64,000 bases of DNA from Candidatus Niyogibacteria bacterium CG10_big_fil_rev_8_21_14_0_10_46_36 (GCA_002772995.1 PFCO01000001.1:64244-128243), one strand, 5' to 3'; numbered from the stretch's first letter, positions 31,128 to 63,361 are shown. A program made the numbers and translations. Notes: generated from the letters alone by a model not told the origin.

Positions 31128-31131
31128 TGAG

Positions 31132-31206: not shown

Positions 31207-31234
31207 ATATATAGATGCAAGCTATGCACCATTG

Positions 31235-46255: not shown

Positions 46256-47284
46256 TTATTGTAAACGTTTTTTGACGATATCCGCGATAAAATCTTCTGT
46301 TATCTGCACCGCTTCGTGCGTAGCGCCTCCTATGTGCGGAACGATAATGAGCCTGCCCATCTTCTCAAAATCTTCAAAAGAAACGCATGCATGATTATAT
46401 AACTCATTCCCGCTTAAGTGCTTGCCGCCTCCCATATCCTCGCGCGCCATAACATCAAGCGCCGCGCCTTTTATCCATCCTTCTTTCAAGGCGCACAACA
46501 ACGCTTCTTCATCAACAAGTTCTCCGCGCGCCGTATTTACAACATAGGGCGTTTTTTCTTTCATCAATGCAAAATGTCTCCGCTGCAAAATAACTTCCGG
46601 CCTCTCCTGGTCATATGACGCATGCATGGATATAATATCTGCCCTTTTGCATAATTCTTCTAATGACAATGCTTTTTTTGCCGACCGTGCTGTTTTTTTG
46701 TACGGATCATAAAATAATACATTCATCCGAAACGCCTTTGCATATTGCGCGACAATTTTTCCTAAACGTCCGAACCCTATGATGCCGAGCGTCTTCCCCG
46801 CAAGCTGGTTGCCTTTGAAGGCATCTCGGTTCCATCTTTCGGAAGCGCTGCCAACACCTCTGCTGTTACCGTATCCGGTAACGGTGCCATACGCCCAAGG
46901 AATATTTCGAGCTAATGCCAATATAAGCCCCCACGTCATCTCCGCGGTTGAGGGGATATGTTTTAAAAATCCTGTGCGCCCCTTCAGAGAAATGATTTTT
47001 ATTTTTCTCTTCTTGGCTTCTCTCGTATCAATGTGATTCAGCCCTGTTGTATTTGTCGCAATTATTTTGAGATTTGGCATCTTATCCATCCACAAAAAGT
47101 CTATTTTATGCCTAAGACGCACCACGAGAACATTCGTATGCGCAAGGAAATCTTTTCTCTCATCGTCACTCGTCACTGACAGCGCAAGATCATCCTCCCA
47201 AAACCGGACATTACCAAGAGCGCGATAGATGGTAACCGCATTTGGAGAATAATCATGTTTTCCTTCTAAAATAAGTATGTTCAT
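46256..47284 (-). CDS. D-isomer-specific 2-hydroxyacid dehydrogenase (NAD-binding)
   Basis: GKTLGIIGFGRLGKIVAQYAKAFRMNV NAD-binding fingerprint, catalytic His near the C-terminus (IVPHIGGAT). Confidence 0.8.
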   Translation of the reverse strand: MNILILEGKHDYSPNAVTIYRALGNVRFWEDDLALSVTSDDERKDFLAHTNVLVVRLRHKIDFLWMDKMPNLKIIATNTTGLNHIDTREAKKRKIKIISLKGRTGFLKHIPSTAEMTWGLILALARNIPWAYGTVTGYGNSRGVGSASERWNRDAFKGNQLAGKTLGIIGFGRLGKIVAQYAKAFRMNVLFYDPYKKTARSAKKALSLEELCKRADIISMHASYDQERPEVILQRRHFALMKEKTPYVVNTARGELVDEEALLCALKEGWIKGAALDVMAREDMGGGKHLSGNELYNHACVSFEDFEKMGRLIIVPHIGGATHEAVQITEDFIADIVKKRLQ

Positions 47285-48012
47285 ACTCCTTTTTCCAACC
47301 GTATTAATGCTTTTTCGGCGACCTCCCAATCTTCGGGCTCATCAATGTCAACTATGTATTTTGTTTCTATTGTATATGGGGCAACCCGCTTCCCATAAAA
47401 ATGAGGGTCCTTTCCCTCAAATAAAAGATCTGTCTTAAAAAGATAGATCGCGCCAACGCTCCAATATGCATCTTTAAGGTCCTGCCGCCGTATCGCGCGG
47501 TTGCGCACCGGATCACCGTTTATCAACTCCATAAAACCGTCATCCCGTATGACCATGCCCTTATACGGGCTGAATTGCTTCGGTATCTTTGAAACGCTCA
47601 ACACAGTGTCTGCGCCGGCATCAAGAAGAGCAACGGCGTCCTTGATATGAAAAGGCTGACGCAACGGCGAAGTCGGCTGTAATATCATCACATAATCAGG
47701 TTTATATCCTTCCCGCTCCTTGAGCCACTCTACCGCATGCCGAATGACCGGTAAATGCGCCGTATTGTCTTTCGCTAATTCTTTCGGCCGTATGAACGGA
47801 ACTTCGCATCCATAGCGTTTCGCGACTTCCGCTATGTCTGCGTCATCGGTTGAAAGAATAAGACGGTCAAATACCTCGGATCTTTGCGCAGCAGCGATCG
47901 TATAAAAAATAAGCGGCTTTCCCAAAAGCGGCTTTACATTTTTGCCCGGAATTCCTTTCGAACCTCCACGCGCAGTAACAATGCCTAATATTTTTTTATG
48001 GCTCTTGCTCAT
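47281..48012 (-). CDS. neuA: Acylneuraminate (CMP-nonulosonate) cytidylyltransferase
   Basis: ILGIVTARGGSKGIPGKNVKPLLGKPLIFYTI signature of CMP-NeuAc/CMP-Kdo synthetase family. Start placed at MSKSHKK; track ORF has a long upstream extension. Confidence 0.8.
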   Translation of the reverse strand: MSKSHKKILGIVTARGGSKGIPGKNVKPLLGKPLIFYTIAAAQRSEVFDRLILSTDDADIAEVAKRYGCEVPFIRPKELAKDNTAHLPVIRHAVEWLKEREGYKPDYVMILQPTSPLRQPFHIKDAVALLDAGADTVLSVSKIPKQFSPYKGMVIRDDGFMELINGDPVRNRAIRRQDLKDAYWSVGAIYLFKTDLLFEGKDPHFYGKRVAPYTIETKYIVDIDEPEDWEVAEKALIRLEKGV

Positions 48013-49171
48013 GGAATGTTTTTTGAATATACAGAGGAACTGTCGCAAGTGTTTCCGCGATACGCTCTGCGGTGTTTTCTCCATGGTACATGCTTGACGC
48101 CGGATACCGCCCATGCGTCATCTGCTTTTGTATCGCCTTTTTTATGTCTTCTTTTGTGTCAGAAACCTCTACGACATTTTCTGAACGCAATCGTCCGTTT
48201 TGCCGCGTGCCTGTCATAACAACAGGAACTCCCAAGTACGAACACTCTTTTATGCCCGCTGAAGAATTCCCGATAAGCATTTTAGTGTTTTTCAGCAACG
48301 CAAGAAAAACTTTCGGCGGCAAATACCGCGTGAATCTGATGGTATGACCCTCTGCCGTATCACGAAATCTGCGGAGCTCGTGCGAGATTTCTTCAGCACC
48401 TGCGTCAAAATTCGGCCAAAACCATAACGCGGGCATCCCTGTTTCATGTACCGCCTCCAAAAGCATCCGTGTTTTTTCTCCCAATGTTCCTACCTCAGTG
48501 CTTACGGGATGATACATCACCATCAAAAAATCATTATTGAATGCGATGCGCGCGCCACTCCCCGTTTCATCAAAATCTATAACGTCTGCCGAGTCGGTGG
48601 CGGCTTTGTGCACCAGCTCAACATCGGGACTGCCGAAATTAAATACATATTCCGGCCGCTCTCCCATGCAGATGACCCGCTTACGCGCATCTTCATTCGT
48701 CGTAAAGTGGATGTGCGCAAGCTTGGTAATCGCATGCCTTACTGATTCGTCGAGTGTCCCCGAAACATCTCCTCCTTCAATGTGCGCAACAGGGATATTC
48801 ATGTACGCCGCTGCAGTTGCCGCCGCAAGTACTTCAAACCGGTCCCCGCGCACAAGCACAAGATCAGGCTGTATTGCTCCGAAAATCGTCGAGAACTCTA
48901 TTGTTCCAAGTCCCGCGGTTTTTGCTTTTGTGATGCCGTCACTGCCTTCCAAATTGAAATATGCATCATGAATATGAGTAAATCCTCCGCGCCGCAATTC
49001 TTCCTTTATGTTTGTAAACTTGGAAAGATACTTTGGAAGAAGAGCAGCTCCCCCGACAATAATGTGCAGCTCCGTATCATCACGCCTGCGGAGCTCTTCA
49101 AGTATCAAAAAATTCCTGCTGTAATGAATAAAGCTCGTAATTACAAAACAAATTTTTCTTTTCTTATTCAT
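47996..49171 (-). CDS. neuC: UDP-N-acetylglucosamine 2-epimerase (hydrolysing, NeuC-like)
   Basis: GT-B-like epimerase_2 fold; genomic context between neuA and neuB. Confidence 0.7.
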   Translation of the reverse strand: MNKKRKICFVITSFIHYSRNFLILEELRRRDDTELHIIVGGAALLPKYLSKFTNIKEELRRGGFTHIHDAYFNLEGSDGITKAKTAGLGTIEFSTIFGAIQPDLVLVRGDRFEVLAAATAAAYMNIPVAHIEGGDVSGTLDESVRHAITKLAHIHFTTNEDARKRVICMGERPEYVFNFGSPDVELVHKAATDSADVIDFDETGSGARIAFNNDFLMVMYHPVSTEVGTLGEKTRMLLEAVHETGMPALWFWPNFDAGAEEISHELRRFRDTAEGHTIRFTRYLPPKVFLALLKNTKMLIGNSSAGIKECSYLGVPVVMTGTRQNGRLRSENVVEVSDTKEDIKKAIQKQMTHGRYPASSMYHGENTAERIAETLATVPLYIQKTFHEQEP

Positions 49172-49405: not shown

Positions 49406-50518
49406 CTACACAATGATGTCTTTAGTGATGGGATCGTATTTTTTTAAAGCTTTCGTTATCGTCTTTCCCAATACAGATTCATACTCTTCTGAGGGCAGCC
49501 CGCCGGCATATTGCTGGGGTCGCATGGCATAAAGCACATCTTTTGTGAGAACAGTGCCTACAGACATGTCATGACCCGCCATAAGCGATTTTCTGAATAA
49601 TGGACGGAAAGCCGACTCTCCTTCTTGGAGACACTTTTCTCTGGGTGCTGTCTGCGCTCTCTTTGCAAAATCACTCGCCAGCACTGCTTTTTTTCTGGAG
49701 CCGCTCTCATATGCCGCATGCGCGCGATCCACTAATTCTTTAAATTCGCCAGGTGTAAATGACACCTTATGGTCAGCGCCATACAACTCGCGGTCCATAG
49801 AAAAATGTTTTTCTATAATCGTTGCGCCCAAAGCTACCGCCGTCTCTACCGAATCAAATGAAAGAGAATGATCCGAAAATCCTATCGGCATCTGAAATAT
49901 CTCTTTATATAGCTCTATTGTTGGGAGACGAAGCTCCTCTGGCGGGCAAGGATATTGCGACACGCAATGCAAAAGTGCAACCTTATCATTCTTCTCCCGC
50001 AAAAAGGCAACTGCTCTTTTTACTTCTTCAAGGGTGCTCATCCCCGAAGAAATAATAATTGGCTTGCCGCTCTCACGCATATAATCGAGCATAACAAAAT
50101 CCAAAATATCACCCGAACCGATTTTCCAAAATTGCATGCCTACAGAATCCAGCATTTTTGCAGCACCCCGGCTCATTGGCGTAGAAAGAAAATATATCCC
50201 CTTTTTATCACAATACGCCTTTAAGGGCTTCCAAAAAGCTTCAAACGGAGTGGCGTTTGTATTACGCGTTACCCAAGAATATCGATCGCTCCCTTTAAAG
50301 TGAGGCGCTGTTACATCAATATCAAGCTGCTCGTCTTCAACATTATGTGTCTGCCATTTTACGGCATCAACACCTGCTGCGGCCGCTTCGTCAACGAGCT
50401 GTTTTGCATTCGCCAAATATTCCTCTACCGAGCGATCTTCTTCCGTTTGGATGAAGTTCTTTCCTGCTTCGGCGATAATAAAAAGGTCCGTGCTTAGCTT
50501 TTCCCAGATCATATCCAT
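49406..50518 (-). CDS. neuB: N-acetylneuraminate (nonulosonate) synthase NeuB family with C-terminal SAF domain
   Basis: IIAEAGKNF, GVDAVKWQTH, IGSGD, IISSGMST, LLHCVSQYP, GFSDHS, GATIIEKHFS, then SAF-like C-terminus. Track ORF extends 26 codons further upstream. Confidence 0.85.
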   Translation of the reverse strand: MDMIWEKLSTDLFIIAEAGKNFIQTEEDRSVEEYLANAKQLVDEAAAAGVDAVKWQTHNVEDEQLDIDVTAPHFKGSDRYSWVTRNTNATPFEAFWKPLKAYCDKKGIYFLSTPMSRGAAKMLDSVGMQFWKIGSGDILDFVMLDYMRESGKPIIISSGMSTLEEVKRAVAFLREKNDKVALLHCVSQYPCPPEELRLPTIELYKEIFQMPIGFSDHSLSFDSVETAVALGATIIEKHFSMDRELYGADHKVSFTPGEFKELVDRAHAAYESGSRKKAVLASDFAKRAQTAPREKCLQEGESAFRPLFRKSLMAGHDMSVGTVLTKDVLYAMRPQQYAGGLPSEEYESVLGKTITKALKKYDPITKDIIV

Positions 50519-50657
50519 GCCTCCTCTTTGTTTGTGAATGTTCATGCCAAAAGAATATAAAACACATACCAAAATGTCAACCAGATGTATTGTCACCCTT
50601 CGGCAAGTTTAGAATAAGCTCAAGGCAAGCTACCAAGAATACCCATAAATAGAATAT

Positions 50658-50706: not shown

Positions 50707-51387
50707 CTAATATTCCACATCATCCTTATACGCGATAACTTTTACATGAGAAACGCCCGCGCGCCCGGAAAGCTCCCGCACAAATTCATCAATACGAAGG
50801 GTGTCAATAAACTTTACATGATACACCATCTCGGACGCAGTACCTCCCTCTCGTGCGTTAATGTTCAAAAGCATGCTATTTTTTATGTATTTCTGAAACA
50901 ACTCCTCAAATGAGTGGGACCCGCCGTCCTTACTGTCCACAATAAACGAAAGCAGATGTTCGTGCGAATGGAATGAACCGAAATTAATCTTTGTAAGAAA
51001 AAAGATTATCGCTAATATCAGCGCTGTCGAAACAAGCGCAATCGCGTAATTTCCGGTACCAACTGCCATACCCACACCCAACGCAAAGAAAATAAATCCT
51101 ACATCTTTCGTATCTTTGACCGGCGTCCTGAACCGGATAATGGAAAAAGCGCCCAAGAGAGCAAATGCCCGCGCAACGCTGCTCCCGATGACCATCATCA
51201 CCATTGCAACGATAACCGATACCAATACAAGCGTGAATACAAAGGACTGCGAATACGACACCCCGCGATGGGTTTTTTTATACACATACGCAATCAAAAA
51301 AGACAACCCAAATGTGAGCAGGATATTGAACGCAATATACGGAATGGAGAAAGACGCCCCCGCGCCTTCCGAAAATAAACTTTCCAT
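50707..51387 (-). CDS. DUF4956-family membrane protein, 226 aa
   Basis: 4 TM helices then soluble C-terminal domain; pattern recalled as matching DUF4956 proteins that accompany VTC-domain genes. Confidence 0.6.
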   Translation of the reverse strand: MESLFSEGAGASFSIPYIAFNILLTFGLSFLIAYVYKKTHRGVSYSQSFVFTLVLVSVIVAMVMMVIGSSVARAFALLGAFSIIRFRTPVKDTKDVGFIFFALGVGMAVGTGNYAIALVSTALILAIIFFLTKINFGSFHSHEHLLSFIVDSKDGGSHSFEELFQKYIKNSMLLNINAREGGTASEMVYHVKFIDTLRIDEFVRELSGRAGVSHVKVIAYKDDVEY

Positions 51388-51392
51388 ATGGA

Positions 51393-52139
51393 TTATATAA
51401 TACCGTCCCGTAAAGAAAATGCAATAGAGTCTTTCCGGGATGCATCAAGGCTCTCACAATACTTAGAATACGACATGCGGTGCAAATTGAATTCCCGGAT
51501 AACCTCATGCAGATAGAACGGGAGCTTGCCGTTGAATTTTACCTCCATAACGGTCTTGTCTTGCAGCACCGGAACAAAATCCTCTCCTTCATATATAAGC
51601 GAATTGTGTTTTCGTGCGCGTATGTTCCGGTCAAAGGTTATCCGCACATTTTCATTTAACGAGCCGACGAACGGTTCCCGCTCATACACAACCAGCACCT
51701 CAGGCGCAATAGACCGCAATAACTTCTCCGACAAGAATTCTTGGATAACGTTGTCTTTTTTTTCGGAAAGGGTGTCTTCTTCCCGGCCGGCGAATAGCGC
51801 ATACTCCTTTTTTGAAACATATATTCTATCTTTTAAGATAATAGCGTCATCTTTCCGCTTTATCTCAAAGAATATGTTCTCTGAGAAGACGCCGTTTTGC
51901 TTGTACGCCCGCCATCGTATCTTTTTTCGCTTTCTTACGCCGTCTTTTTTTTCATGGTAATAGAAATAGCGAGGACTATCATAATACAAGCTCCATATTT
52001 CATATGACCCGGTTTGTGATTCTGCAGCACGCGGATCACGAGACATAAATGGCTTAATGCGCTTCTTTATCAAAAATTCTTGCTGCGGAGAGAGCAGATA
52101 TTTAAATTCAAATCGCTGAAAATGAAGCTTGGGAAGCAT
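51393..52139 (-). CDS. VTC-domain protein (polyphosphate-polymerase-like triphosphate tunnel), 248 aa
   Basis: HFQRFEFKYLL start and spaced R/K/E residues typical of the bacterial VTC (CYTH-like) domain. Confidence 0.65.
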   Translation of the reverse strand: MLPKLHFQRFEFKYLLSPQQEFLIKKRIKPFMSRDPRAAESQTGSYEIWSLYYDSPRYFYYHEKKDGVRKRKKIRWRAYKQNGVFSENIFFEIKRKDDAIILKDRIYVSKKEYALFAGREEDTLSEKKDNVIQEFLSEKLLRSIAPEVLVVYEREPFVGSLNENVRITFDRNIRARKHNSLIYEGEDFVPVLQDKTVMEVKFNGKLPFYLHEVIREFNLHRMSYSKYCESLDASRKDSIAFSLRDGII

Positions 52140-52144
52140 AATGG

Positions 52145-54844
52145 TTAAGGATTAAAGATGATGCTTGAATACTCATCGCTTTGCGTATCGATGCCGTTTT
52201 TTTGGAAGATATTGCCATGCAGCTCCGGCATGCCCCCGCCGAATATTTCTTTTTTGCGGTACGCATGCACTCCTATATTATTGCCCGTGATCTCATTGTT
52301 GCTAATAACCGGAGTAGAAAGGTCTTTTACTTCAATGCCGATATTGCAGCCGGTCAAGATATTGCTTGAAATACTATTGCCCTCTGACTTCTCTCCCACG
52401 CTAATGCACTTATCACCAGAGCGCGAGATGGTATTGTTGCGTATCACCAGGCCGCTTCCTGCCCCCGAAAGGTCAATGCCGTCATTTCCGTTCTCTACAA
52501 ATGTGTTCCCGGAAACAATGCCGTGCTTAATATAATCAAGATCAAGCGCATCTGCGCTATTGTGCTCAAATATATTGTTTATGATATCTACTGTCCCATA
52601 CTTCACATTGAGCCCGTCATCCGCATATGCTCCGGCAACAGCGTTATGAGAAAATACAACATCAGCATTATATACAGAAAGCATCCCCGAAAAAAATATC
52701 CCATTTATATTGGCCTCACTTCCGCCACGCATATCAACATATTCAAACACATTCTTAGCATCTCCAGTATTTGCAACCCCAAACACTCCCCAAGCCACGC
52801 CTTCCCGCAATGGACGGAAAGAAATACGCGCAAACTCGCTCCCGCGCGCTTCAACCGGACTATATGATACAAGCGAGGCTCCTTCCTGGAACAAAAGCGT
52901 CGCTCCGGGAGAGACGATAAATGTTGTCCCTACGGGTATCACGGTGATGCCGCTCATAATATGCGTGCCGGAAGAAAGTACAATACTCCCGTTCCGTAAG
53001 AAAAAACCGGCGCGCGAAGACACAAACTCCTGCGGAGACATTGCTATGTCCTTAAAATGATGGAAGGTTGTCTTATCTATGAATCGGGTTTCGGTAAAAT
53101 CAAATTCTTCATGCGTAATTAAGTTCACAAACAAAATATGAACATCCTGCCACGCAAAAGGCATACCTTGCCCAAATGGCTCAAATGTCACGAATATCGT
53201 TTTTGTATCCTTTTTCTCCGGCGATGGAGAAAAATGAAGCGGAATACCCGGAAAGACGACACTATTTTTGCCCGAAATAAATTCCTGGGACAGAAGCGCG
53301 TCTCCCGCATCATGTATGTTATTCTTGTTAGAATCTTCAAATACACGCGCGTTCCCTATTGCTTCTCCAGCAAAGGGAATAGTGAGTGTTTTAACCGCGC
53401 TATCTCCCAATCCCTCTACCGCTATATCTATTTGCAATTCATGCGCCAATGCATCAAGCGAGATAACCCCATTTGCTTGCGTGTCCTGTAGCTGGCCGCG
53501 GAGCAAAAAAAAGCTATCCTGAAAGTCGCTTCTGTTTTGTCTGACTTTAGCGTCAAATGTTCTATTACTATCGTATTTTGCAAAATCACGATAAAAATGG
53601 GGGCGTAAATCGTGATACACCTGATCGAAAAACGCAATGTCGTCTTCTATATTACGGTCATCAGACACATACGCCCAGAGTACTTCTTTTTGGCGAAAGG
53701 AAAATTCGGGATACGCAAGCACCCGATCCACCAGCTTATCATTGCATGCGACAAAATCATTGAACGAAGCACAGCCATCCTCCCCCAAAAAAGGCAAGCT
53801 GATATCCGAACTTATACCGACATCCCAGGGTATAGTCTCAAATTTTCCGCTGCTTGGGTTAGCATACAAACGAACATTCCCGCTTTGACTTTGATGTTTA
53901 CTCCCCGCAAGAAGCGACATGGCGTTCCACGCATAAAATTTTTCCAAATCAAGTATATTGCCGATGTCACGCTGGAATGCGTCGTCAGGCTCTTTTAAAA
54001 CCCACAACAGCGTATCAAGGTCAGCCCTATTCTCAAAATTAAACCGCCCATCATCTGTCTGCTTGTCCCAAAAGGAGATACCATCATACGCAGAAAGGCC
54101 ATCTCCTTCGGAGAGAGATATGTCTTCGGTAATATACAAATTAGCATCGGACGGCAATTCGGAGCGTTCCAAGAATTCTTTTGACCAGTCTTCTATCTGG
54201 TAGTACACTCCCATATCTTTTCCGTTAACACGCAATGTCACATATTTTGCGTCGGGCACAGCAAGGCCAAACTTCTGGGCGCGGTAATCATTCAAGTATT
54301 TTACAAAATACTCGCGGTCGCTTGGAATGATTAATTTTATCACCTCTATACCTCCAAACAAATCTTCTTTTTTAAAATCTACTTGCCAAGATCGTTTTGT
54401 GCGCACCCAATGGTTCGGGTTATCGCCGCGATATCTGACTTTTACCTCATGCTCTCTTCCATTAAAAAAGAAACGCGCCGGCACTTCTTTTTTGAATTCA
54501 TCGCTCAGCCACGCTTCCCCCCGGAGCACCGCATCAGAAAACGGATCCGGAAGATTTGCGTTGAGCGCGCGGAGGTCCTCGCTATCAATTTCAAGGTCGT
54601 ACGAAAGAATATCTGCGCCTCCAAACATATATGGAATATATGCGAGGTTCGAGATATTTACCCCAAGCTCACGGAGCCCCCGATATGTCGGCAATATTTT
54701 TTTTACCAACGGATTAAACACAAGCGCATTTTTGTTCTGCTGCAGAAACACAAGGAGAAAAAACGCATCCACAACAAAAAACCCCGCTATGAGAGCAAAG
54801 AGCGCATATCGCATATATCTTTTTCTTCGGGGCGAAAAAAGCAT
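52145..54844 (-). CDS. CotH-like atypical kinase domain protein fused to a C-terminal right-handed parallel beta-helix, 899 aa
   Basis: N-terminal TM anchor, central region with CotH-like pattern (KRSWQVDFKK..., KYLNDYRAQ..., DANLYI), C-terminal ~200 aa of NNxIxxN pectate-lyase-like repeats (NNIFEHN, GNTFVENGNDGIDL, RNNTISRSGDKCISV, SNNEITGNNIGV). Confidence 0.6.
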   Translation of the reverse strand: MLFSPRRKRYMRYALFALIAGFFVVDAFFLLVFLQQNKNALVFNPLVKKILPTYRGLRELGVNISNLAYIPYMFGGADILSYDLEIDSEDLRALNANLPDPFSDAVLRGEAWLSDEFKKEVPARFFFNGREHEVKVRYRGDNPNHWVRTKRSWQVDFKKEDLFGGIEVIKLIIPSDREYFVKYLNDYRAQKFGLAVPDAKYVTLRVNGKDMGVYYQIEDWSKEFLERSELPSDANLYITEDISLSEGDGLSAYDGISFWDKQTDDGRFNFENRADLDTLLWVLKEPDDAFQRDIGNILDLEKFYAWNAMSLLAGSKHQSQSGNVRLYANPSSGKFETIPWDVGISSDISLPFLGEDGCASFNDFVACNDKLVDRVLAYPEFSFRQKEVLWAYVSDDRNIEDDIAFFDQVYHDLRPHFYRDFAKYDSNRTFDAKVRQNRSDFQDSFFLLRGQLQDTQANGVISLDALAHELQIDIAVEGLGDSAVKTLTIPFAGEAIGNARVFEDSNKNNIHDAGDALLSQEFISGKNSVVFPGIPLHFSPSPEKKDTKTIFVTFEPFGQGMPFAWQDVHILFVNLITHEEFDFTETRFIDKTTFHHFKDIAMSPQEFVSSRAGFFLRNGSIVLSSGTHIMSGITVIPVGTTFIVSPGATLLFQEGASLVSYSPVEARGSEFARISFRPLREGVAWGVFGVANTGDAKNVFEYVDMRGGSEANINGIFFSGMLSVYNADVVFSHNAVAGAYADDGLNVKYGTVDIINNIFEHNSADALDLDYIKHGIVSGNTFVENGNDGIDLSGAGSGLVIRNNTISRSGDKCISVGEKSEGNSISSNILTGCNIGIEVKDLSTPVISNNEITGNNIGVHAYRKKEIFGGGMPELHGNIFQKNGIDTQSDEYSSIIFNP

Positions 54845-54851
54845 ATATAGC

Positions 54852-55844
54852 TTAATAACGGATACGGAATAATCTTCTTAGTAACTTTGTCTTTCGGGAA
54901 TAAAATAACGCGTAGTATAAAAACAGACGGAAACGGGAAAGTTGCCTTTGGAGAACGAGTGGGGGCATGCTTACTAATACATCCAGCTCCTCCGGAGCCG
55001 GAATATTCGCCTTTTCGGCGACAATACGGATGTGATGAACCGACAACCCTGACTTAAGTTGATGCGTCCATTCGCTTCTGTTTTTATATTCGTCATTGTC
55101 TTCATACAAAACACGGAACCCCGCCATTTGCAACATAAGACGGAGCGACTCAGGAGTGAACATAAAGGCATGGTCTATCTGAATTGCGGAGACAAGGGAG
55201 CCGCCCCGGCGGGCTTGCGCTCGGAAATTTTTTACCGACAAAATAAGTCGCCCGCCGGGCTCCAGCACACTATGTGCCCAGATAAAAAACCCCTTCGGAT
55301 CAAGCAAATGATTGAGTGTATGAAAACACAAAATATGGGATACGCCTTGCATTTTTTCTTTGGGAAAATCCTCAAAAAGACAATTATATGTTTTAATCCC
55401 CCGGATATTTGCGAATTCCGCATGCGCTTTTGATGGCTCAATGCCCACAAGTTCTAATTTGGGAAATATATTCTTAAACCCCTGAAGCGCGCCCCCGCTA
55501 TTCGAACCTACATCTATCGTTACGCCTTCCGTATGTACATATGTTGAGAGTGCGCGCGCAAGCGCTTCTCCAAAACGCACACTCATCTGAAATCCGTCTT
55601 CAAGAGATTGTTCCTCTTTCTCGCCTTTCGCGTGCGCCCTATCTTCTCTATAAAAGGATCTGTAGTATTCGTCGTATGCCTCTTTCGTCATGCGTGGATT
55701 TAAATATATCAATCCACAGCGCTTACAAAGACATGTTTGTGCTGCATGGCCATTAGAAGCGCTTCTTGCCAAAATAAAAAAATTATCTCCTCCGCACAGA
55801 TTGCACACTATATGTTCTTTTGGCATGTCTTGATACTGAAACAT
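54852..55844 (-). CDS. Class I SAM-dependent methyltransferase with N-terminal Cys4 zinc ribbon
   Basis: CNLCGG...CKRCG, then motif I IDVGSNSGG. Confidence 0.75.
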   Translation of the reverse strand: MFQYQDMPKEHIVCNLCGGDNFFILARSASNGHAAQTCLCKRCGLIYLNPRMTKEAYDEYYRSFYREDRAHAKGEKEEQSLEDGFQMSVRFGEALARALSTYVHTEGVTIDVGSNSGGALQGFKNIFPKLELVGIEPSKAHAEFANIRGIKTYNCLFEDFPKEKMQGVSHILCFHTLNHLLDPKGFFIWAHSVLEPGGRLILSVKNFRAQARRGGSLVSAIQIDHAFMFTPESLRLMLQMAGFRVLYEDNDEYKNRSEWTHQLKSGLSVHHIRIVAEKANIPAPEELDVLVSMPPLVLQRQLSRFRLFLYYALFYSRKTKLLRRLFRIRY

Positions 55845-55853
55845 AAAGCAACG

Positions 55854-56669
55854 CTACTTAAAGCATATTAAAAAATAACCGTGCGAAAAGAACTTATTCG
55901 TTTTCATGGGTTCCTTCGTCCACAAACGGCGGAACCGTAATATCGCCCGATACAGCATAGTTATCGGCCGTTCACATATATAAGGTATCGGCGTCCATAT
56001 GGGGAATGGATTTGCATAAAAATACGAGCACTTCGCAAACCCTGCGGACTGCGCCGCAGTAACATACTGTTTGGGAGTATCGGTATTCCGATAATAATCT
56101 TTCTGCAGTTTCTTTTTTGGCAAAAACGGGCGCAATAAAAACTTGTATACATCATTCAGCGCTTGCAAAGAAAATTTGCGCGGCAAAATAAGTGTCACCA
56201 ACATGCCACCCGGTTTCATAATACGATAAGCCTCCATCAGCACTTTATGGTAATCGGGCACATGCTCTAAAAGCCCTATGGATGTAACAACATCATACGT
56301 GTCTTCAGCAAGGCCGGTATCTGCCGCATCCGCAACAACAAACTCTCCCGCCCCCTCAAACACATGAAAATTCCTTCGGGCAAGCCCAATGGCATCCGTG
56401 GAACTATCAAGAAGCGTTACCTGCATGCGGTCATACGCGTGAAGAAATAACGCAAGCGTCCCTCTGCCGCATCCTATCTCTAACGCTGTGCGATACCCTT
56501 TTCCTTTGACAATCTTATGAATGAGCTGATAGTAATTATATAAATTAAATTGTCGCTGTGTGCGCGGATGTTCCCCAGGCGGCACGAAAAGAGTCCATTC
56601 CATCCCGGACTCTCTTTTCCCTGAAATATCTTTCCATTTGTCTATGAATTCTTTATTGGGGTATTCCAT
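55854..56669 (-). CDS. Class I SAM-dependent methyltransferase
   Basis: Motif I ALEIGCGRGTLALFL, motif post-I LLDSS. Confidence 0.8.
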   Translation of the reverse strand: MEYPNKEFIDKWKDISGKRESGMEWTLFVPPGEHPRTQRQFNLYNYYQLIHKIVKGKGYRTALEIGCGRGTLALFLHAYDRMQVTLLDSSTDAIGLARRNFHVFEGAGEFVVADAADTGLAEDTYDVVTSIGLLEHVPDYHKVLMEAYRIMKPGGMLVTLILPRKFSLQALNDVYKFLLRPFLPKKKLQKDYYRNTDTPKQYVTAAQSAGFAKCSYFYANPFPIWTPIPYICERPITMLYRAILRFRRLWTKEPMKTNKFFSHGYFLICFK

Positions 56670-56676
56670 AATATCT

Positions 56677-58053
56677 CTATTCTTGGCGCATGGCGGAAAA
56701 TATCACATCCGCTATCCGCTCCGCGGCTTTCCCATCAAAACGCCAGCATTGTTCATCGCGCAACCGTAGTCTGCTCTCGTGATCACACTCCGGATGCGAG
56801 AAATACACATTAATCCACTCTATCAATTCATCAGCAGTAGAAACCATGCGGATGCCACCCGTGCGCAACGCCTTTTGATAATGTTCTGTTTCGTAAAAAC
56901 TCGTTGGTCTTTGAGAAAGCGGGATGTTTTTCCTCATCTCAAAATTAATGTTGATTATAGGCTTATCGAGCATCGCCGCATCAAGTATGAGCGTTGATCC
57001 ATAACTTACAAACACATCAGCGTGCGCCACCGTATCCAATAAATGCTGAAGGTCATCTTGGGTCATGTCCCAATCCAATCCGAATCCTCGTTTTTTGGTA
57101 AAACGCACTCCCGGGACATCAAAAATAATGGAGGGGCGTTTTTTGGCCTCGTTTTCGTCTATAAAATCATTCGGAGGGTAGCGTACCAAAACAACGGCGC
57201 TATGCTTTATTTTTCCATCTCTCATACATGATTGCAACAAATCAAGGATGTCCCAATCAGATGCGCTATTTGAGCGGCCCAGGGGAGCATATACCAAAAT
57301 TTTTTTATCGGGCTCAACACCAAGCCGCTTTGTAAATTCGGCACGAGTAGACGGCGTTCCATACGCATAATAGTCAAACGGAAGCGCCCCCACAACAATA
57401 ATGTTTTTTTCATCTATATCTGCGTGCCGTAATGCCTCTTTTTTCTGTATCTCATTAAACACGAGAAGTATATCGGGGAGCAAGCGCATGATTGCACGCC
57501 CCGTTAACTTGTCCCACGAATTTACGATGCCGATTGAACGCACTCCCCTTTTCTTTGCCTCACGCAGCATGCTTGTCTCTATTTCTCCGAATAGATGCGC
57601 CGTCACGATGAGCTGGGGCGAATACCTGTCAAAATATTGAGAAAAGGCATTGTCACGTATGCAATAATAATCAAAAAAGCGGACCACCCTCCTGCAGAGT
57701 CTATTCGCACATGCCCTCGTTAGAATATAACTTGCGACGTACCCGAAGATGCTGCCACCCATATCACGCGCTCTTTTGCGCCGCAAATCAATGGTTGATG
57801 TGCGGAGTAAGCGGAATTTTAGATATTCAAATATTTCACTCCCCCGGGGTCGTTTGTACGCACCGAACACCTCATATAGTACTTGCGGATGAGAAAATTC
57901 TTTTTTATAATATTCCGCCTTTGCTTCACTCGCGACAAAAAAAACAATTCTGATATCCGTATCAGAAAGTAAAAGCTGATATAAGCGGGTCCGCAAAATA
58001 TTTTTTGCTTCTGCTCCTTGCAATATAGGGATAAAAACAATCTTATTGCTCAT
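56677..58053 (-). CDS. TagF-like CDP-glycerol/ribitol glycerophosphotransferase family protein (paralog A), 458 aa
   Basis: VNSWDKLT, ILVYAPLGRS (compare TagF LYAPTxR), VSYGSTLILDAAMLDKPII (compare TagF ITDYSSxxFDxLLLDKPII). Clear paralogy with 58343..59770. Confidence 0.55.
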   Translation of the reverse strand: MSNKIVFIPILQGAEAKNILRTRLYQLLLSDTDIRIVFFVASEAKAEYYKKEFSHPQVLYEVFGAYKRPRGSEIFEYLKFRLLRTSTIDLRRKRARDMGGSIFGYVASYILTRACANRLCRRVVRFFDYYCIRDNAFSQYFDRYSPQLIVTAHLFGEIETSMLREAKKRGVRSIGIVNSWDKLTGRAIMRLLPDILLVFNEIQKKEALRHADIDEKNIIVVGALPFDYYAYGTPSTRAEFTKRLGVEPDKKILVYAPLGRSNSASDWDILDLLQSCMRDGKIKHSAVVLVRYPPNDFIDENEAKKRPSIIFDVPGVRFTKKRGFGLDWDMTQDDLQHLLDTVAHADVFVSYGSTLILDAAMLDKPIININFEMRKNIPLSQRPTSFYETEHYQKALRTGGIRMVSTADELIEWINVYFSHPECDHESRLRLRDEQCWRFDGKAAERIADVIFSAMRQE

Positions 58054-58142
58054 AACGCACGGTTCTCCATGGTAATCATCATTATTGCATAAATCAGCTA
58101 CCTAGAATACTATATAAAAGTTGTTATCATTCTTACACATCC

Positions 58143-58346
58143 ATGCGCGACAGCCATACGCGAAGTGTTTTAAAAGGAATAACGTATCGTATTTTTGCGA
58201 CAATAACTACCGCGCTGTTTGTTTTTTTTATTACAAAAAACATAAAGCTTTCATTGAGTGTTGGCATTTTTGAAATAGCCGCAAAAATTTTACTCTTTTA
58301 TTCACACGAACGGGTATGGCATGGTATTCGTTGGGGTAAGTTTTAG
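58143..58346 (+). CDS. DUF2061-like small membrane protein, 67 aa
   Basis: Two TM helices and YSHERVWHGIRWG (HER.W motif recalled from DUF2061); lone plus-strand gene between the two TagF-like paralogs; 4-nt overlap with the 3' end of paralog B. Confidence 0.45.
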   Translation: MRDSHTRSVLKGITYRIFATITTALFVFFITKNIKLSLSVGIFEIAAKILLFYSHERVWHGIRWGKF

Positions 58347-59770
58347 ATATCTTCTTTGTTCTTGCCCATGCGAATATCAGAAAAAGCATGGAACCCGTTT
58401 TCAAGCAGCTGCAATATGGCGGATGCGACCCGCGCATGCGCTTTACCGTCGTGCTTGCCACATTGACTTTCTAAAAATGCTTTGCGCTCTTCTCTATGCA
58501 AAGCAGGGGTTGCAAGATATGTATTTATCCATGCAATCAACGCTTCCCGCGAAGGAGCTTTTTTGCAGCCCGTATGCCTAAATAAATATTGATAATGATG
58601 GTATTCACCAAAATGGCGAACACTCCGAAAATATGGCGCTCCCTCCCCCCCGTCAAAATCAGGATAAACAACCGGACGATCAAATGCCGCCATATCAATA
58701 CACAATGAGGACCCCGCATTCACTAGTACATCTGCGTAAAACAAAGAATCGGCAAGATGAACCATGTCACCCCTTCCCATCTCATTATCCTTTCTTTTTC
58801 CACTCTGAAATGCTGTTCCGGGCTTATCAAAAAATATCTTCACTTTTTCTGAAAGGCGAAGCGCATCTTTATTAAAATCATCCCCTGGAGGAATCCGAAC
58901 CAAAAGCTGGGGATGTCCGTGAATCTCCCCCGAAAGAATGGCGTCATGCAGCAACTGAAGCATTTGCCAATCGGTTTCTATAAATTTACTCCCCATGGGT
59001 GCAAACATAATCATTCGCCGCTCTGAATCAAATCCAAGCTTTTCAAAAAATGTCTTTCTCCCCGTGGGCTTATATCCGATATAGTAATCAAACTGCGGCA
59101 TGCCGACTGCAGCAATGTCTTTAAAACGCACCTTGTGGAGCCCCACGAGCTCATTTCTTATAAAATCATTATTTGTTAAAAAATGATCCGCAGCTACGGG
59201 AATTAATGATTTGTTCGTAAGATTGTCCCACGAACGGACCATCCCGAGTGTTTTTATGCCGTGCCGTTTTGCCTCCACAAGCATACGAATGTCATCCCAA
59301 TCAAGCATGTCCGTAGAGAATATCAGGTCCGGTTGATACGCTTGAAAAAAACCGCCAAAAATATTTTGGTCATAGAATGATGAAAAAATATTACGGAACA
59401 ATACGGGCGTGTAGTGCAGACGCGCTATAGTATGGTATAAAAAACGGGAAAGAGCGTATGGTATCCTTTTTTTCTCACGCCAATATTTCGCCCTGCTCTT
59501 AAGAGACATGGTGGATGTGGGTAAAAGCAACGCCCCGGCCGTCCGGAGAATCTGCTCTCTCCGAGAAAGAGGGACCTCGGGAATGCCTACAACAATAATC
59601 CCATCTTTTTCAAATTCGCGTTTGAAAAAATCTTTCTTTCGCTGCGGACAAAAAATAACAATATTTACTTTACCATGCAAAAACTCCAGCACTCCCGAAC
59701 GAAGGATATTCCGGGATATAAGCGTATGGAAACTTGAAATAACAATGGTCTTTTTCTGTTCCTTTTGCAT
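58343..59770 (-). CDS. TagF-like CDP-glycerol/ribitol glycerophosphotransferase family protein (paralog B), 475 aa
   Basis: VRSWDNLT, MIMFAPMGSK, VNAGSSLCIDMAAFDRPVV; collinear similarity with paralog A. Confidence 0.55.
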   Translation of the reverse strand: MQKEQKKTIVISSFHTLISRNILRSGVLEFLHGKVNIVIFCPQRKKDFFKREFEKDGIIVVGIPEVPLSRREQILRTAGALLLPTSTMSLKSRAKYWREKKRIPYALSRFLYHTIARLHYTPVLFRNIFSSFYDQNIFGGFFQAYQPDLIFSTDMLDWDDIRMLVEAKRHGIKTLGMVRSWDNLTNKSLIPVAADHFLTNNDFIRNELVGLHKVRFKDIAAVGMPQFDYYIGYKPTGRKTFFEKLGFDSERRMIMFAPMGSKFIETDWQMLQLLHDAILSGEIHGHPQLLVRIPPGDDFNKDALRLSEKVKIFFDKPGTAFQSGKRKDNEMGRGDMVHLADSLFYADVLVNAGSSLCIDMAAFDRPVVYPDFDGGEGAPYFRSVRHFGEYHHYQYLFRHTGCKKAPSREALIAWINTYLATPALHREERKAFLESQCGKHDGKAHARVASAILQLLENGFHAFSDIRMGKNKEDI

Positions 59771-59864: not shown

Positions 59865-61310
59865 TTAGACTGTATCTGGAAAGTATTTTATGTACACGCC
59901 CTTAGTTTCTGTGTACACATCAAGCGCTTCGGTGCCCGGTTCGCGGAAACCGTTCCCCGAAACACCCACTCCGCCGAATGGCATGTTTGGCTCGCTGCCA
60001 TATGTAGGACCATTTACCGACACAATACCGCTTCTGCAATCTCGGATAAAGCACTGGATGGCATCCGAGTGCTTGGTATGGATAGCAGCAGTGAGTCCGT
60101 ACGGGGTTCCGTTAACCATTTCGATCATTTCTCTAAATGTATCGAATACATGGATAGAAACAATAGGCCCGAATAATTCATTCTGCGCAAGCAGGGATGT
60201 ATGAAATTCATCATCTATAATAGTTGGCGCCATAAAATATCCGGGTCGCCCCACTCTATAGCCACCTGCTAAAAATGCGATACGCCCCCTCTTCTTCGCA
60301 TCTTCACATTGCGTCAGCATCGCCATAAGTTGTTTTTCGCTGACAACCGGACCGAGATCGTCTTCATCAGCATTACCGAGCCGCAACACATTCGTTCGTG
60401 CAACTAGTTTTTCTTTGAATACATTCGCTATACTGACATCAACAAGAATACGCGAACCCGCAGCACAGCGCTGTCCCGCATTGCTAAATGCAGAAAGCAG
60501 AGCGCACTCGACCGCCCAATCTATGTCTGCGTCTGCGCATACAACAAGCGGGTTTTTCCCACCGAGTTCCAAAGACACTTTCACCGGACGCTCCGAAACT
60601 ATTCTACGTACTGCAAATCCAGTGCGGGCGGAACCGGTAAAACTAACGAGATCAATATCCTGCTCGATAAGAGCACGCCCAGCTTGTCCATCCCCCTGCA
60701 ATACAGAAAACACGCCCGGAGGAAGACCCGCTTCCGCGAGCATCTCCGCAAACATTATCGTCGTATACGGCGTGTATTCGGACGGTTTTATAACAGCGGT
60801 ATTCCCACAAAGAAGCGCAGGAAACATCTTCCATGCTGTGTTCGCAATGGGCGTATTAAATGAGGTGATAAGAGCACATACGCCAACCGGTTCACGAACC
60901 GTATATGCAAATCTGTCTTTCATCCCGCTCGTCATGGTGCGCCCATAGAAACGCTCGCCTTCGCTCGCCCAAAAATACCCCATACGGATAGCCCCGCTCA
61001 CTTCACCAAGCGCGTCTTTCATGGATTTTCCTGTTTCTATGTGGACGATGCGCGCGATATTGTTCTTATTGCGTTCCATTATCTGTGTTGCTTTGAGAAG
61101 TATAGAGGCCCGTTCTAAAATGGGAGTTTTGCGCCATGAAAAAAATTCATTCCTCGCAGAATCTACAAGAGTAGCGGCATCCTCCTCCGTCCCCTGGTGT
61201 ATCTTAGCTATACTTTTCCCGCTACAGGGATCAAATTTTTCTATACATCCATTCAAGGCCCCCACCCATAACCCTCCGTGCCAATGGCCAATCGTATCGG
61301 GATATCTCAT
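59865..61310 (-). CDS. NAD(P)+-dependent aldehyde dehydrogenase
   Basis: ELGGKNP glutamate motif, catalytic Cys in GQRCAAGSR. Confidence 0.88.
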   Translation of the reverse strand: MRYPDTIGHWHGGLWVGALNGCIEKFDPCSGKSIAKIHQGTEEDAATLVDSARNEFFSWRKTPILERASILLKATQIMERNKNNIARIVHIETGKSMKDALGEVSGAIRMGYFWASEGERFYGRTMTSGMKDRFAYTVREPVGVCALITSFNTPIANTAWKMFPALLCGNTAVIKPSEYTPYTTIMFAEMLAEAGLPPGVFSVLQGDGQAGRALIEQDIDLVSFTGSARTGFAVRRIVSERPVKVSLELGGKNPLVVCADADIDWAVECALLSAFSNAGQRCAAGSRILVDVSIANVFKEKLVARTNVLRLGNADEDDLGPVVSEKQLMAMLTQCEDAKKRGRIAFLAGGYRVGRPGYFMAPTIIDDEFHTSLLAQNELFGPIVSIHVFDTFREMIEMVNGTPYGLTAAIHTKHSDAIQCFIRDCRSGIVSVNGPTYGSEPNMPFGGVGVSGNGFREPGTEALDVYTETKGVYIKYFPDTV

Positions 61311-61383
61311 GAGTGCATACCCTCCTTATCAATGTTCAATTGTGCATACCGTACAAGAAATCCGACAAAAAATCAATATATAA

Positions 61384-61412
61384 AAAGCTCCGGAGTTTCT
61401 TCCGGAGCTTTG
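61384..61412. terminator. Intrinsic terminator downstream of the transketolase gene
   Basis: aaaaa-gctccgga-gtttctt-ccggagc-ttt. Confidence 0.6.
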
Positions 61413-61414
61413 CG

Positions 61415-63346
61415 TTACCTTTCCGTATAACGCTTTTTTATTTTTTGAACGATAGAATCTGCATGAAGCCCATGGTAACGTAATGCTTCATCAGCAGTTC
61501 CGCACGCCGGGATATCTTCAATGCCAATCGTATACACTATCGGACACTCAATATTCTTTTGATAGAGACGGGTTATTTCTGCCATAAACCGTTCTCCAAG
61601 ACCGGTATCACAATAATGGTCGTCTATCACAAACACGCAAGAGAAATCTTCAAATGCGACACTACGGAGCCAGTTGCCATCAATGCAATTCAGCCACGGC
61701 ATGTTGAATATCGCAACAGAAATGCGTTCTTCCCGCCATGCCTGCTCTGCTGCTATCCATGCCTCGGTGAGCATCACGGGTCCGTACGCAAGAATTGCAA
61801 CATCATCTCCGCCCTTGAGCATCGCTCCCTTCCCCTTTTCAAGTTCATATGCAGGGGCAAGCTCGTATGGACATTCACACGGGACAGTAACAAGCCTGAT
61901 GTATGTACTTTCATCATTCTTTTCTACCGCCCAACGGATTGCCATGCGTGCTTCTTGTTCATTCGCCGGCTGAATGATTGTCATCCCCGGCATCGTCATA
62001 AGCGGGATATCGCGTACTGATTGGTGCGAATGGCCGGGACCCGCAGGAATGAGCCCCGCGAGCGAACCAGTATAAATTATCTTTGTCCGTTCGGTTGCAT
62101 TGTTGTATATCTGTTCATTCGGCCGGAGTGTTAAAAAACATCCAAACGAATGCACAACCGGCAAAAGCCCCCCCAACGCCATACCTCCCGCACGCGATAC
62201 CATGTCTTGTTCTGCTATGCCGCACTGGAAATACCGTTCTGGGAACTCTTCACGAAACTGCACGAGCCCGCAATCTTTTACCAAGTCTGCGTCAAGTGCA
62301 ACGATATCTCCCCGCTCACGCGCCATAGAAACAAGTTCTTCGCCATACGCAGAAACAAGTTTCTCTTGCTTCTTAGCTGAATTGGAAGTGGCAACAGCTG
62401 CCGTGCGCTTACGCACAGCCACCGGATGCATATTAAGCGCTGCGGTTTTTTGGGTGAGCGCAGAAAACAATTCTGCAAAAGCATGCTCGTACCGTTCCTG
62501 CGTAAGAGCGCCACTATGGTATTGATACCAGCCGTCTTCAGAACTATCTTCCATGAAAGAAACACCCTTGCCCTTAACCGTGTGTGCGATGATAACGCGT
62601 GGATTCCCGGGTTTTCTCTGGTCGTAAAATGCATGCCATAGAACATTTTCTAACGCAGAAATATCATGACCATTTATTTCAAAAGCATTCCATCCGAATG
62701 CTTCAAATTTCGCTTTTATGTTCCCGAGGTCGCTCGTTTCGGAAACCAGTCTGTCAGATTGATACTTGTTATGGTCAATAATAACGGTCAGTTCGCTCAT
62801 CTGCTCTGCTTTTGCCGAAACAAGCGATTCCCAGACCTGTCCTTCCTGCAATTCACCATCTCCGCATATAACATACACATTTCCCAGTTTGCCCTGGAGA
62901 CGCTTTGCGGATACCATGCCTTTTGCTTTTGATATTCCCATGCCAAGCGAGCCGGTGTTGGTTACCATACCCGGTATCATCCTGTCGGGGTGGCCTGGGA
63001 GTCCGCCTATTCTTCGCAATGCATGTATTTTTTCAAACGCAAGACGCTCCATACCGATTAACAACGCGTAGAATGCGGGCGCATCATGCCCCTTGGAGCT
63101 GAATATAATATCACTACTATAATCTGCGTTGTTTGGATTGTGTAAGCGACGCACCCAAATCCATGTCAGCATATCTATAACGCTGAAAGATGTCCCGATG
63201 TGCCCCGATCCCGCATTCTGTATCATGTAGAGTGCGTTTATCCGGAAGATATCGGCGAGAACAGGACACAGTGAAAATGTATCCTTAATGCTCTCTCTCA
63301 TCCGCCGGATCTCATCAAGCGGGATGTAATACATTATTTTTTTCAA
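61415..63346 (-). CDS. Transketolase (TPP-binding N-terminal and pyrimidine-binding/C-terminal modules in one 643-aa polypeptide)
   Basis: GSGHIGTSFS TPP motif, GDGELQEG, C-terminal transketolase Pyr and C domains. Confidence 0.8.
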   Translation of the reverse strand: MKKIMYYIPLDEIRRMRESIKDTFSLCPVLADIFRINALYMIQNAGSGHIGTSFSVIDMLTWIWVRRLHNPNNADYSSDIIFSSKGHDAPAFYALLIGMERLAFEKIHALRRIGGLPGHPDRMIPGMVTNTGSLGMGISKAKGMVSAKRLQGKLGNVYVICGDGELQEGQVWESLVSAKAEQMSELTVIIDHNKYQSDRLVSETSDLGNIKAKFEAFGWNAFEINGHDISALENVLWHAFYDQRKPGNPRVIIAHTVKGKGVSFMEDSSEDGWYQYHSGALTQERYEHAFAELFSALTQKTAALNMHPVAVRKRTAAVATSNSAKKQEKLVSAYGEELVSMARERGDIVALDADLVKDCGLVQFREEFPERYFQCGIAEQDMVSRAGGMALGGLLPVVHSFGCFLTLRPNEQIYNNATERTKIIYTGSLAGLIPAGPGHSHQSVRDIPLMTMPGMTIIQPANEQEARMAIRWAVEKNDESTYIRLVTVPCECPYELAPAYELEKGKGAMLKGGDDVAILAYGPVMLTEAWIAAEQAWREERISVAIFNMPWLNCIDGNWLRSVAFEDFSCVFVIDDHYCDTGLGERFMAEITRLYQKNIECPIVYTIGIEDIPACGTADEALRYHGLHADSIVQKIKKRYTER

Positions 63347-63361
63347 GGCAGTAACCTCCCG

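Follow-up and report, generated by a model that had tools for sequence, protein, structure and literature searches.

The window, a stretch of 64,000 nucleotides of Candidatus Niyogibacteria bacterium CG10_big_fil_rev_8_21_14_0_10_46_36 (GCA_002772995.1, PFCO01000001.1:64244-128243), carries on its minus strand, at 50707-54844, a cassette of three genes coding for a membrane-anchored protein with a CotH kinase-like fold and a C-terminal β-helix, a VTC-domain protein, and a DUF4956 membrane protein. Comparison with other genomes revealed that VTC and DUF4956 are an obligate core pair, and that the exported third component is usually, though not always, CotH; this core and its broad distribution in the Candidate Phyla Radiation (CPR, or Patescibacteria), to which the host belongs, are what the present data add. 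We propose that a membrane-docked polyphosphate (polyP) polymerase supplies an extracytoplasmic CotH-like enzyme which modifies a surface glycan, and place the probability of this whole chain at roughly 0.3.

An exported kinase fold is without ATP outside the cell, and a candidate donor-making enzyme beside it would solve this donor problem. The cassette puts such a candidate, together with a membrane protein, beside an exported kinase-fold protein in dozens of lineages. In the proposed scheme the VTC protein would dock on DUF4956 at the membrane and make polyP there from nucleoside triphosphates; this polymer, or phosphoryl groups from it, would reach the outer face, and the β-helix would hold or position the nascent glycan from the neighbouring transferases. 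The CotH-fold domain would then use polyP to phosphorylate or polyphosphorylate the glycan or an envelope protein; alternatively, it might bind polyP or anchor it to the glycan. Relative to the yeast VTC synthase-translocase, the VTC-DUF4956 pair would be analogous in function without being homologous. The synthesis of polyP known from bacteria is ascribed to PPK1 and PPK2. The scheme, if true, would be a new route by which anionic polymers of the cell surface are made or decorated, and one with a wide distribution among CPR bacteria, Firmicutes and Actinomycetes.

The three open reading frames (ORFs) are tightly packed, with 5-nt gaps between neighbours, and lie exactly where a first-pass annotation, made from the sequence of the window, had placed them (Table 1). 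Its family assignments were borne out by hidden Markov model (HMM) searches, in which all three products matched Pfam above the gathering cut-offs. The 899-aa protein contains CotH (PF08757; E 1.2e-22, 81.4 bits against a cut-off of 23.8, residues 136-433) as well as Beta_helix (PF13229; E 4e-13) and NosD (PF05048) in residues 730-890, the 248-aa protein is a VTC member (PF09359; E 3.2e-38, 132 bits against 23), and the 226-aa protein belongs to DUF4956 (PF16316; E 6.6e-18, 65.4 bits against 30.6). Public collections contain proteins identical to all three; those of VTC and DUF4956 bear the locus tags COU47_00665 and COU47_00660 and the name of the Niyogibacteria bacterium. The genome is one of CPR and not of a Firmicute, for which its gene content might be taken. 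The public gene call of the CotH protein (889 aa) begins at 54814, 10 codons later than the longest ORF (54844); 54844 is the better start because it restores a basic RRKR segment found before the anchor helix in all homologues.

The conservation of the cassette in CPR was investigated with one genome per species, using a VTC-seeded scan with the pattern F[QYR]RFEFKY. This gave 57 loci, almost exclusively in CPR-type sequences, whose ORFs were called and then searched with HMMs built for the purpose; most of the records are labelled as CPR lineages, namely Magasanik-, Peregrini-, Buchanan-, Gracili-, Doudna-, Kuenen-, Komeili-, Giovannoni- and Yanofskybacteria and CPR3. DUF4956 was present at all 55 loci not cut at that point, and at 52 of the 57 it lay directly downstream of VTC on the same strand. 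A CotH and/or β-helix gene was found directly upstream of VTC at 39/57 loci and within ±10 kb at 51/57, with CotH and β-helix fused in a single ORF at 36/57. Relatives of the CotH/β-helix protein at 39-49% identity had VTC and DUF4956 directly downstream in all cases, and always stood in glycan loci. Most frequent near the cassette were genes for GT4 glycosyltransferases (30/57), NAD-dependent epimerases/dehydratases (28/57), S-adenosylmethionine (SAM) methyltransferases (21/57), DegT aminotransferases (15/57), B12-radical SAM proteins (11/57), GT2 glycosyltransferases (10/57) and ATP-binding cassette (ABC) exporters (8/57), and, at 7/57 each, carbamoyltransferases, Wzx-like flippases and Wzy_C/tetratricopeptide-repeat proteins. 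At 30-60% identity the gene order is still shared by dozens of species-level genomes, and it holds across phyla too. A chance adjacency or an annotation artefact with no functional link is already refuted by this synteny and by Pfam E-values of 1e-18 to 1e-38, and its likelihood is practically nil.

Several loci depart from the common layout or carry unexpected titles. Tandem CotH genes, one without and one with a β-helix, stand upstream of VTC in L007, L008, L022, L026 and L045 (Magasanikbacteria, Doudnabacteria and others), and in L017 and L023 CotH and β-helix are separate adjoining genes. Nine cassette records are titled "uncultured Gammaproteobacteria" or "Pseudomonadales" (L012, L015, L016, L018, L029, L035, L037, L049 and L053), which look like automatic mislabelling of CPR metagenome-assembled genomes (MAGs). 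Two more are titled as archaea (L021 and L024; a Woesearchaeota MAG and "archaeon ARS54"), which could reflect mis-binning or a genuine occurrence in DPANN.

Outside CPR, a tblastn search of a plasmid collection with the VTC protein yielded six Firmicute or Actinomycete records, from Pseudobutyrivibrio, Planococcus, Enterococcus, Paenibacillus, Acetoanaerobium and Nonomuraea, three of them multi-megabase replicons filed as plasmids. VTC and DUF4956 adjoined, in this order, in 6/6 records, and CotH was next to the pair in 4/6. In place of CotH, Paenibacillus cellulosilyticus has a Cthe_2159-type β-helix lipoprotein after VTC-DUF4956 (L067, 9461-11359), and Acetoanaerobium noterae a PLD-like (cardiolipin-synthase-like) protein (L068, 9495-11051). 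ORFs resembling two-component systems adjoin the pair in the Paenibacillus, Acetoanaerobium and Enterococcus faecalis loci (N-termini judged by eye). The co-occurrence of CotH, VTC and DUF4956, which the first-pass annotation had noted for other bacteria, is thus confirmed by our counts in 57 CPR and 6 other loci, as well as by published cassettes beside pel operons. VTC and DUF4956 thus form the obligate pair, with another protein sometimes in the place of CotH, and we think it likely that they act together. The variable third partner fits a core pair which serves different outward-facing or phosphotransfer modules.

The VTC protein is probably a polyP polymerase, judging from its residues. 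A single-sequence search against the PDB gave nothing useful, but a profile of 17 CPR VTC sequences matched the catalytic domain of Vtc4 (3g3q; E 1.5e-13), covering residues 6-239. In the cryo-EM study of the yeast complex the triphosphate/Mn ligands K200, R264, R266, K281, Y359, R361, E426, S457 and K458 of Vtc4 were all required for polyP synthesis, K458 being the one key residue that differs in the central domains of Vtc2 and Vtc3 (bioRxiv 10.1101/2023.01.27.525886). These nine residues align to K13, R75, R77, K94, Y152, R154, E199, S225 and K226 of the 248-aa protein and are invariant in the 17 CPR sequences; K226, the counterpart of the Vtc4 K458 which marks the active polymerase, sits in an invariant SKY motif. 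Their conservation strengthens the likeness to polyP polymerases which had been suggested in the first-pass annotation. The protein consists of the tunnel domain only, without a transmembrane (TM) segment, an SPX domain or a Vtc1-like TM region. The yeast complex (Vtc4/Vtc3/Vtc1) therefore shares with the cassette a homologous catalytic tunnel domain with these nine ligands and, likewise, the genetic coupling of the polymerase to a small multi-pass membrane protein; it differs in having SPX, a fused TM domain and the three-helix channel of Vtc1 type.

DUF4956 is the most conserved member of the trio, with 77% identity to the protein of a Niyogibacteria relative as against 60-62% for VTC and 49% for CotH. 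The family has 4929 representatives at E ≤ 1e-10, and of the 150 best listed almost all are of about 225 aa. The architecture resembles that of MgtC, and the C-terminal ACT domain, which is predicted to be cytoplasmic, the MgtC C-terminal domain; the match of the 226-aa protein to MgtC (PF02308) was below the cut-off (24.7 against 31.4 bits), and in contrast to the MgtC/SapB/YhiD family DUF4956 is a distinct family with its own invariant motifs, always paired with VTC. Two of these motifs, YKKTHxGxSYSQ and RFRTxxKDxKD, are basic and fall in two short loops predicted to be cytoplasmic. A single-sequence search against the PDB gave nothing useful. Homology to the Vtc1 channel was considered and rejected, a profile search of the PDB having given only an ACT-like protein (E 0.12). 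DUF4956 (MgtC-like, five TM helices and ACT) is unrelated in sequence to yeast Vtc1, and translocation by the pair in the window is a prediction.

The 899-aa protein was modelled with AlphaFold2 (AF2; pLDDT 87), which resolved four regions. Its CotH region shares the atypical protein-kinase-like fold of Bacillus cereus CotH (phmmer to 5jd9; E 7e-13, aa 119-433), and the β-sandwich that follows stands in the same position as the FN3 domain of Streptococcus intermedius SIR_1594. The β-helix is closest in likeness to the catalytic β-helices of AlgG, AlgE4 and GH87, which are periplasmic or extracellular polysaccharide enzymes, and has strongly conserved Asp-rich repeats (DDGxNVKY, DxDLDY, NGNDGID and SGDKCIS). 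The membrane anchor named in the first-pass annotation is recovered as an AF2 helix preceded by RRKR, and in 13 of 15 homologues the count of Lys and Arg is greater before this helix than after it, as the positive-inside rule has it. The protein is therefore predicted to be a type-II anchor protein (N-in/C-out) with its bulk outside the cell. In the Firmicute and Actinomycete cassettes the CotH proteins have, as judged by eye, signal-, lipoprotein- or TM/anchor-like N-termini, and a streptococcal CotH homologue was found in the secretome (bioRxiv 10.1101/2024.04.20.589940).

Several points weigh against the delivery of polyP to an exported, active CotH enzyme, and the first group concerns its passage across the membrane. 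No conserved charged residues occur within the TM helices of DUF4956, and since the invariant basic residues are confined to the two loops, a polyP conduit is not evident from its sequence. None of the Vtc chains was matched by the DUF4956 profile in the PDB at E ≤ 10, and no VTC-DUF4956 or CotH fusions were found among 120 VTC homologues, 120 DUF4956 homologues and the 150 best DUF4956 representatives listed. The topology of the 899-aa protein is predicted from the positive-inside rule and the AF2 helix. No experimental work on a bacterial VTC-domain protein, a VTC-type polyP polymerase or DUF4956 was found in the literature searched, and the authors of the S. intermedius study favour a polyP that stays cytoplasmic (bioRxiv 10.1101/2024.04.20.589940). 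If so, the pair would be a membrane-associated, ACT-regulated cytoplasmic synthase which buffers phosphate or energy or regulates the export of glycan. The exported CotH would act on its own, its targets being the glycan or proteins of the envelope or of a host, and the only link between the genes would be their co-regulation with envelope biogenesis. This would suit a VTC protein which is soluble and has no Vtc1-like TM region, an ACT domain, since such domains are ligand-binding regulatory modules, and MgtC relatives which are regulators and not transporters (literature summarised in bioRxiv 10.1101/2024.04.20.589940), as well as the pairs without a nearby CotH at 6/57 CPR and 2/6 other loci. 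However, it leaves unexplained why, in CPR, Firmicutes and Actinomycetes alike, a cytoplasmic synthase should be so closely tied to a kinase-fold protein that is exported, and gives no source of phosphoryl donor for an extracytoplasmic kinase fold. We regard a purely cytoplasmic polyP as possible but doubtful; export of polyP, taken by itself, is tentative, with the odds leaning somewhat against it.

The second group of points concerns the CotH domain, for which the family and fold given in the first-pass annotation stand, while its action as a kinase is not secure. CotH of Bacillus subtilis requires D228 (D228Q is inactive) and D251 (PMC7821199); by the 23-residue spacing of the two Asp, they correspond to D224 and D247 in B. 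cereus. The catalytic-loop segment of the 899-aa protein reads SKHQSQSGN (aa 315-323), without any Asp or Glu, and the catalytic Asp aligns to Q318 with phmmer, MAFFT and hmmalign. Among the 54 aligned CotH sequences of the loci only 22 have an Asp 3-5 residues ahead of the conserved Asn, 19 of them among the 50 from CPR. With no acidic residue in the loop and such an Asp in only a minority of the set, the domain may be non-catalytic; the active-site geometry is deduced from alignments. Within the clade the loop is not of constant length, its forms including HFD.., HQD.. and HQSD.. (also HxD and HQxD). A plain replacement of D by Q would therefore be too simple a reading; the robust claim is that SKHQSQSGN holds no acidic residue.

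Other parts of the site are kept. The metal-binding Asn and Asp correspond to N323 (B. cereus N229) and D340 (B. cereus D247, B. subtilis D251), conserved in 49/54 and 51/54 sequences, respectively, and H317 is found in 46/54 (profile column). The domain thus probably still binds metal and phosphate. With the canonical Asp lost but N323, D340 and His317 kept, the chemistry is probably not that of a classical Ser kinase, and the domain would be either something other than a classical hydroxyl kinase or non-catalytic. Judging from the alignments, a large clade can do without the catalytic Asp of CotH, and this narrows the range of mechanisms to be considered. One of these is that CotH is a pseudokinase, or a binding module for a phosphorylated ligand or polyP (e.g., tethering an anionic polymer), and that the β-helix is a working epimerase, lyase or hydrolase acting on the glycan. 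The acid-free and variable loop, the inactivity of D228Q in B. subtilis, the likeness of the β-helix to catalytic enzymes, its conserved Asp-rich repeats and the β-helix lipoprotein which stands in for CotH in Paenibacillus are all in keeping with this. The retention of N323, D340 and the neighbouring His, however, argues for a retained ligand or catalytic site, and no AlgG-type DPHD motif was visible on reading the 899-aa sequence by eye. We consider a pseudokinase unlikely. Returning to outward delivery, its most specific form, a bacterial analogue of the VTC machine in which polyP is the donor for an exported CotH-fold enzyme that phosphorylates or polyphosphorylates surface glycans, with a non-canonical, possibly His-dependent active site in CPR, would likewise be rather improbable. 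Phosphorylation of a glycan by the cassette is itself hypothetical.

Perhaps the three proteins are instead part of a transmembrane signalling system, in which an extracellular pseudokinase or glycan sensor is coupled through the MgtC-like protein to the synthesis of polyP as an intracellular signal. The regulatory nature of the ACT domain fits this, as do the response-regulator- and sensor-kinase-like ORFs which flank the pair not only in the E. faecalis, Paenibacillus and Acetoanaerobium loci but also, by eye, in two Peribacteria loci, and the diguanylate cyclase/phosphodiesterase (DGC/PDE) gene of the bifidobacterial cassettes (bioRxiv 10.1101/768473). Against this, the neighbours in CPR are overwhelmingly biosynthetic glycan genes and not regulators, and any contact between CotH and DUF4956 would be conjectural; signalling is in our opinion a long shot.

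The first-pass annotation had singled out the cassette as the best candidate in the window for an undescribed system. This did not hold, since it has been published beside pel operons and is visible in NELoc-2 of Clostridium perfringens. In streptococci, clostridia and bifidobacteria, pel operons were reported in 2019-2020 to have a contiguous cotH/polyP-polymerase/DUF4956 accessory set (bioRxiv 10.1101/768473; PMC7112168), and SIR_1594, SIR_1593 and SIR_1592 of S. intermedius have been analysed by structure prediction, revealing Vtc4-like catalytic residues and a TM plus ACT MgtC-like protein (bioRxiv 10.1101/2024.04.20.589940). The pel cassette and that of the window have in common the three families, contiguous and in the same order within an exopolysaccharide locus, and their components: an exported CotH whose kinase fold is followed by a β-sandwich, a soluble VTC-like protein that has the catalytic residues, and a TM plus ACT MgtC-like protein. 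They differ in setting, the former lying beside pelDEA(DA)FG with or without DUF4832 and the latter, in a CPR host, in a locus of TagF-like, nonulosonate and methyltransferase genes, not contiguous with pel. No Pel or DUF4832 families were among the listed Pfam and NCBIfam matches of the 20 flanking ORFs at 36118-63967 (for some ORFs the best 25 NCBIfam matches). In addition, the CotH protein of the window has an extra C-terminal β-helix and a signal anchor, and it is without the catalytic Asp reported in SIR_1594. The 2024 preprint did not find the trio outside pel operons (bioRxiv 10.1101/2024.04.20.589940); on our counts, it is common there. New features are the spread of the cassette throughout CPR at glycan loci other than Pel ones, the fusion to a β-helix, and a degenerate catalytic loop which has lost the Asp.

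In NELoc-2 of C. perfringens, VTC and CotH are accompanied by a membrane protein of 226 aa which is annotated as "tubulin/FtsZ" (PMC2879425). There and on the Planococcus plasmid the order is VTC-DUF4956-CotH-689-aa protein-HEAT-glycosyltransferase; as in the window, the trio is contiguous, and in these two it adjoins a glycosyltransferase, but CotH comes last, there is no β-helix fusion, and the partners are a HEAT-repeat protein and a chitin-synthase-like glycosyltransferase. The Bacillus CotH Ser/Thr kinase (5JD9/5JDA), kin of FAM20, acts in a mother cell which contains ATP, whereas the protein of the window is anchored and predicted to face outward; compared with CotH and FAM20 it has no catalytic Asp, a conserved His beside that position, and a fusion to glycan-type domains. 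If the link between the three genes is real, it bears on the Pel biofilms of streptococci and on NELoc-2. It also bears on the envelopes of CPR episymbionts, which are poorly understood; the genomes of these bacteria, though small, still retain the module.

Table 1. Features of the cassette and of the genes immediately upstream (window positions)
Feature	Position	Strand	Basis
CotH-fold/β-sandwich/β-helix membrane-anchored protein, 899 aa	52145-54844	-	ORF + Pfam
N-terminal signal-anchor helix, aa 5-36	54737..54832	-	AF2 helix; RRKR before hydrophobic stretch
CotH kinase-like domain, aa ~80-453	53486..54607	-	phmmer to 5jd9 + alignments
β-sandwich linker domain, aa 456-590	53075..53479	-	AF2 secondary structure, all-β
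Right-handed parallel β-helix, polysaccharide-processing type, aa 614-899	52148..53005	-	AF2
VTC-domain soluble protein, 248 aa, Vtc4-like triphosphate-tunnel polyphosphate polymerase candidate	51393-52139	-	ORF + Pfam
DUF4956 membrane protein, 226 aa	50707-51387	-	ORF + Pfam
DUF4956: 5 TM helices (aa 15-133) and C-terminal ACT-like domain (aa 143-219)	50707..51387	-	AF2 model
Terminator-like hairpin, 8 bp (6 GC), then T-run	50685-50663	-	consensus scan only
Two SAM-dependent methyltransferase genes	54852..56669	-	Pfam Methyltransf_23/11/25
Two TagF-like glycerophosphotransferase-family ORFs, head of putative operon	56677-58053; 58343-59770	-	Pfam Glyphos_transf, NCBIfam BFO_1060

The terminator ascribed to the cassette in the first-pass annotation was recovered as a consensus match, a hairpin with a T-run 22 nt beyond the DUF4956 stop. 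The next strong terminator-like hairpin upstream on the minus strand is at 59861-59833, and between 59833 and 50685 the consensus scan gave only weak sites. Since the upstream genes also abut, the cassette is probably the distal part of a seven-gene operon (59770..50707) rather than a unit of its own. The methyltransferase genes directly upstream of the CotH gene are separated from it by a 7-nt gap and are probably on one transcript with the cassette; methyltransferases also stand upstream of it in loci L001 and L005. The surface-glycan setting described in the first-pass annotation is evident on both sides, with the methyltransferases and TagF-like ORFs upstream and, downstream, NeuB, NeuC and a CMP-nonulosonate-type cytidylyltransferase (Pfam/NCBIfam). 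Further downstream come genes for a 2-hydroxyacid dehydrogenase, for a membrane protein of 758 aa whose only match is a weak one to the IctB family, for sugar dehydrogenases and epimerases and for a GT4, and beyond these SecA. A reading of the cassette as a defence system was rejected, as its three proteins gave 0 matches to the PADLOC component models (E ≤ 0.01).

By size and position, the TagF-like ORFs, of 458 and 475 aa and separated by 290 nt, together match one Glyphos_transf protein of 925 aa in the Niyogibacteria relative (L001, 3100-5877), which implies either a split gene or frameshift in the window or a fusion in the relative. Just upstream of them are an aldehyde dehydrogenase, a transketolase/1-deoxy-D-xylulose-5-phosphate-synthase-like protein and a short-chain dehydrogenase/reductase (59865-63967, minus strand), the first two of which keep their position in the relative (L001, 1-3100); these three genes may provide an unusual precursor for a phosphate-containing polymer. 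On the other side of the cassette, the mechanical ORFs of NeuC, the cytidylyltransferase and the 2-hydroxyacid dehydrogenase (47281-48114, 47996-49171 and 46256-47329, minus strand) overlap by 119 and 49 nt, and in the cytidylyltransferase and NeuB (49406-50596, GTG start) the family matches set in only after some 40 residues; the real starts in this region probably lie further downstream. A full-length SecA, carrying a SEC-C metal-binding motif at its C-terminus (36118-38796, minus strand), and genes for tRNA-Asp(GTC) and tRNA-Met(CAT) (31131-31308, minus strand) form a background of ordinary housekeeping genes and share their strand with nearly all other genes of the window.

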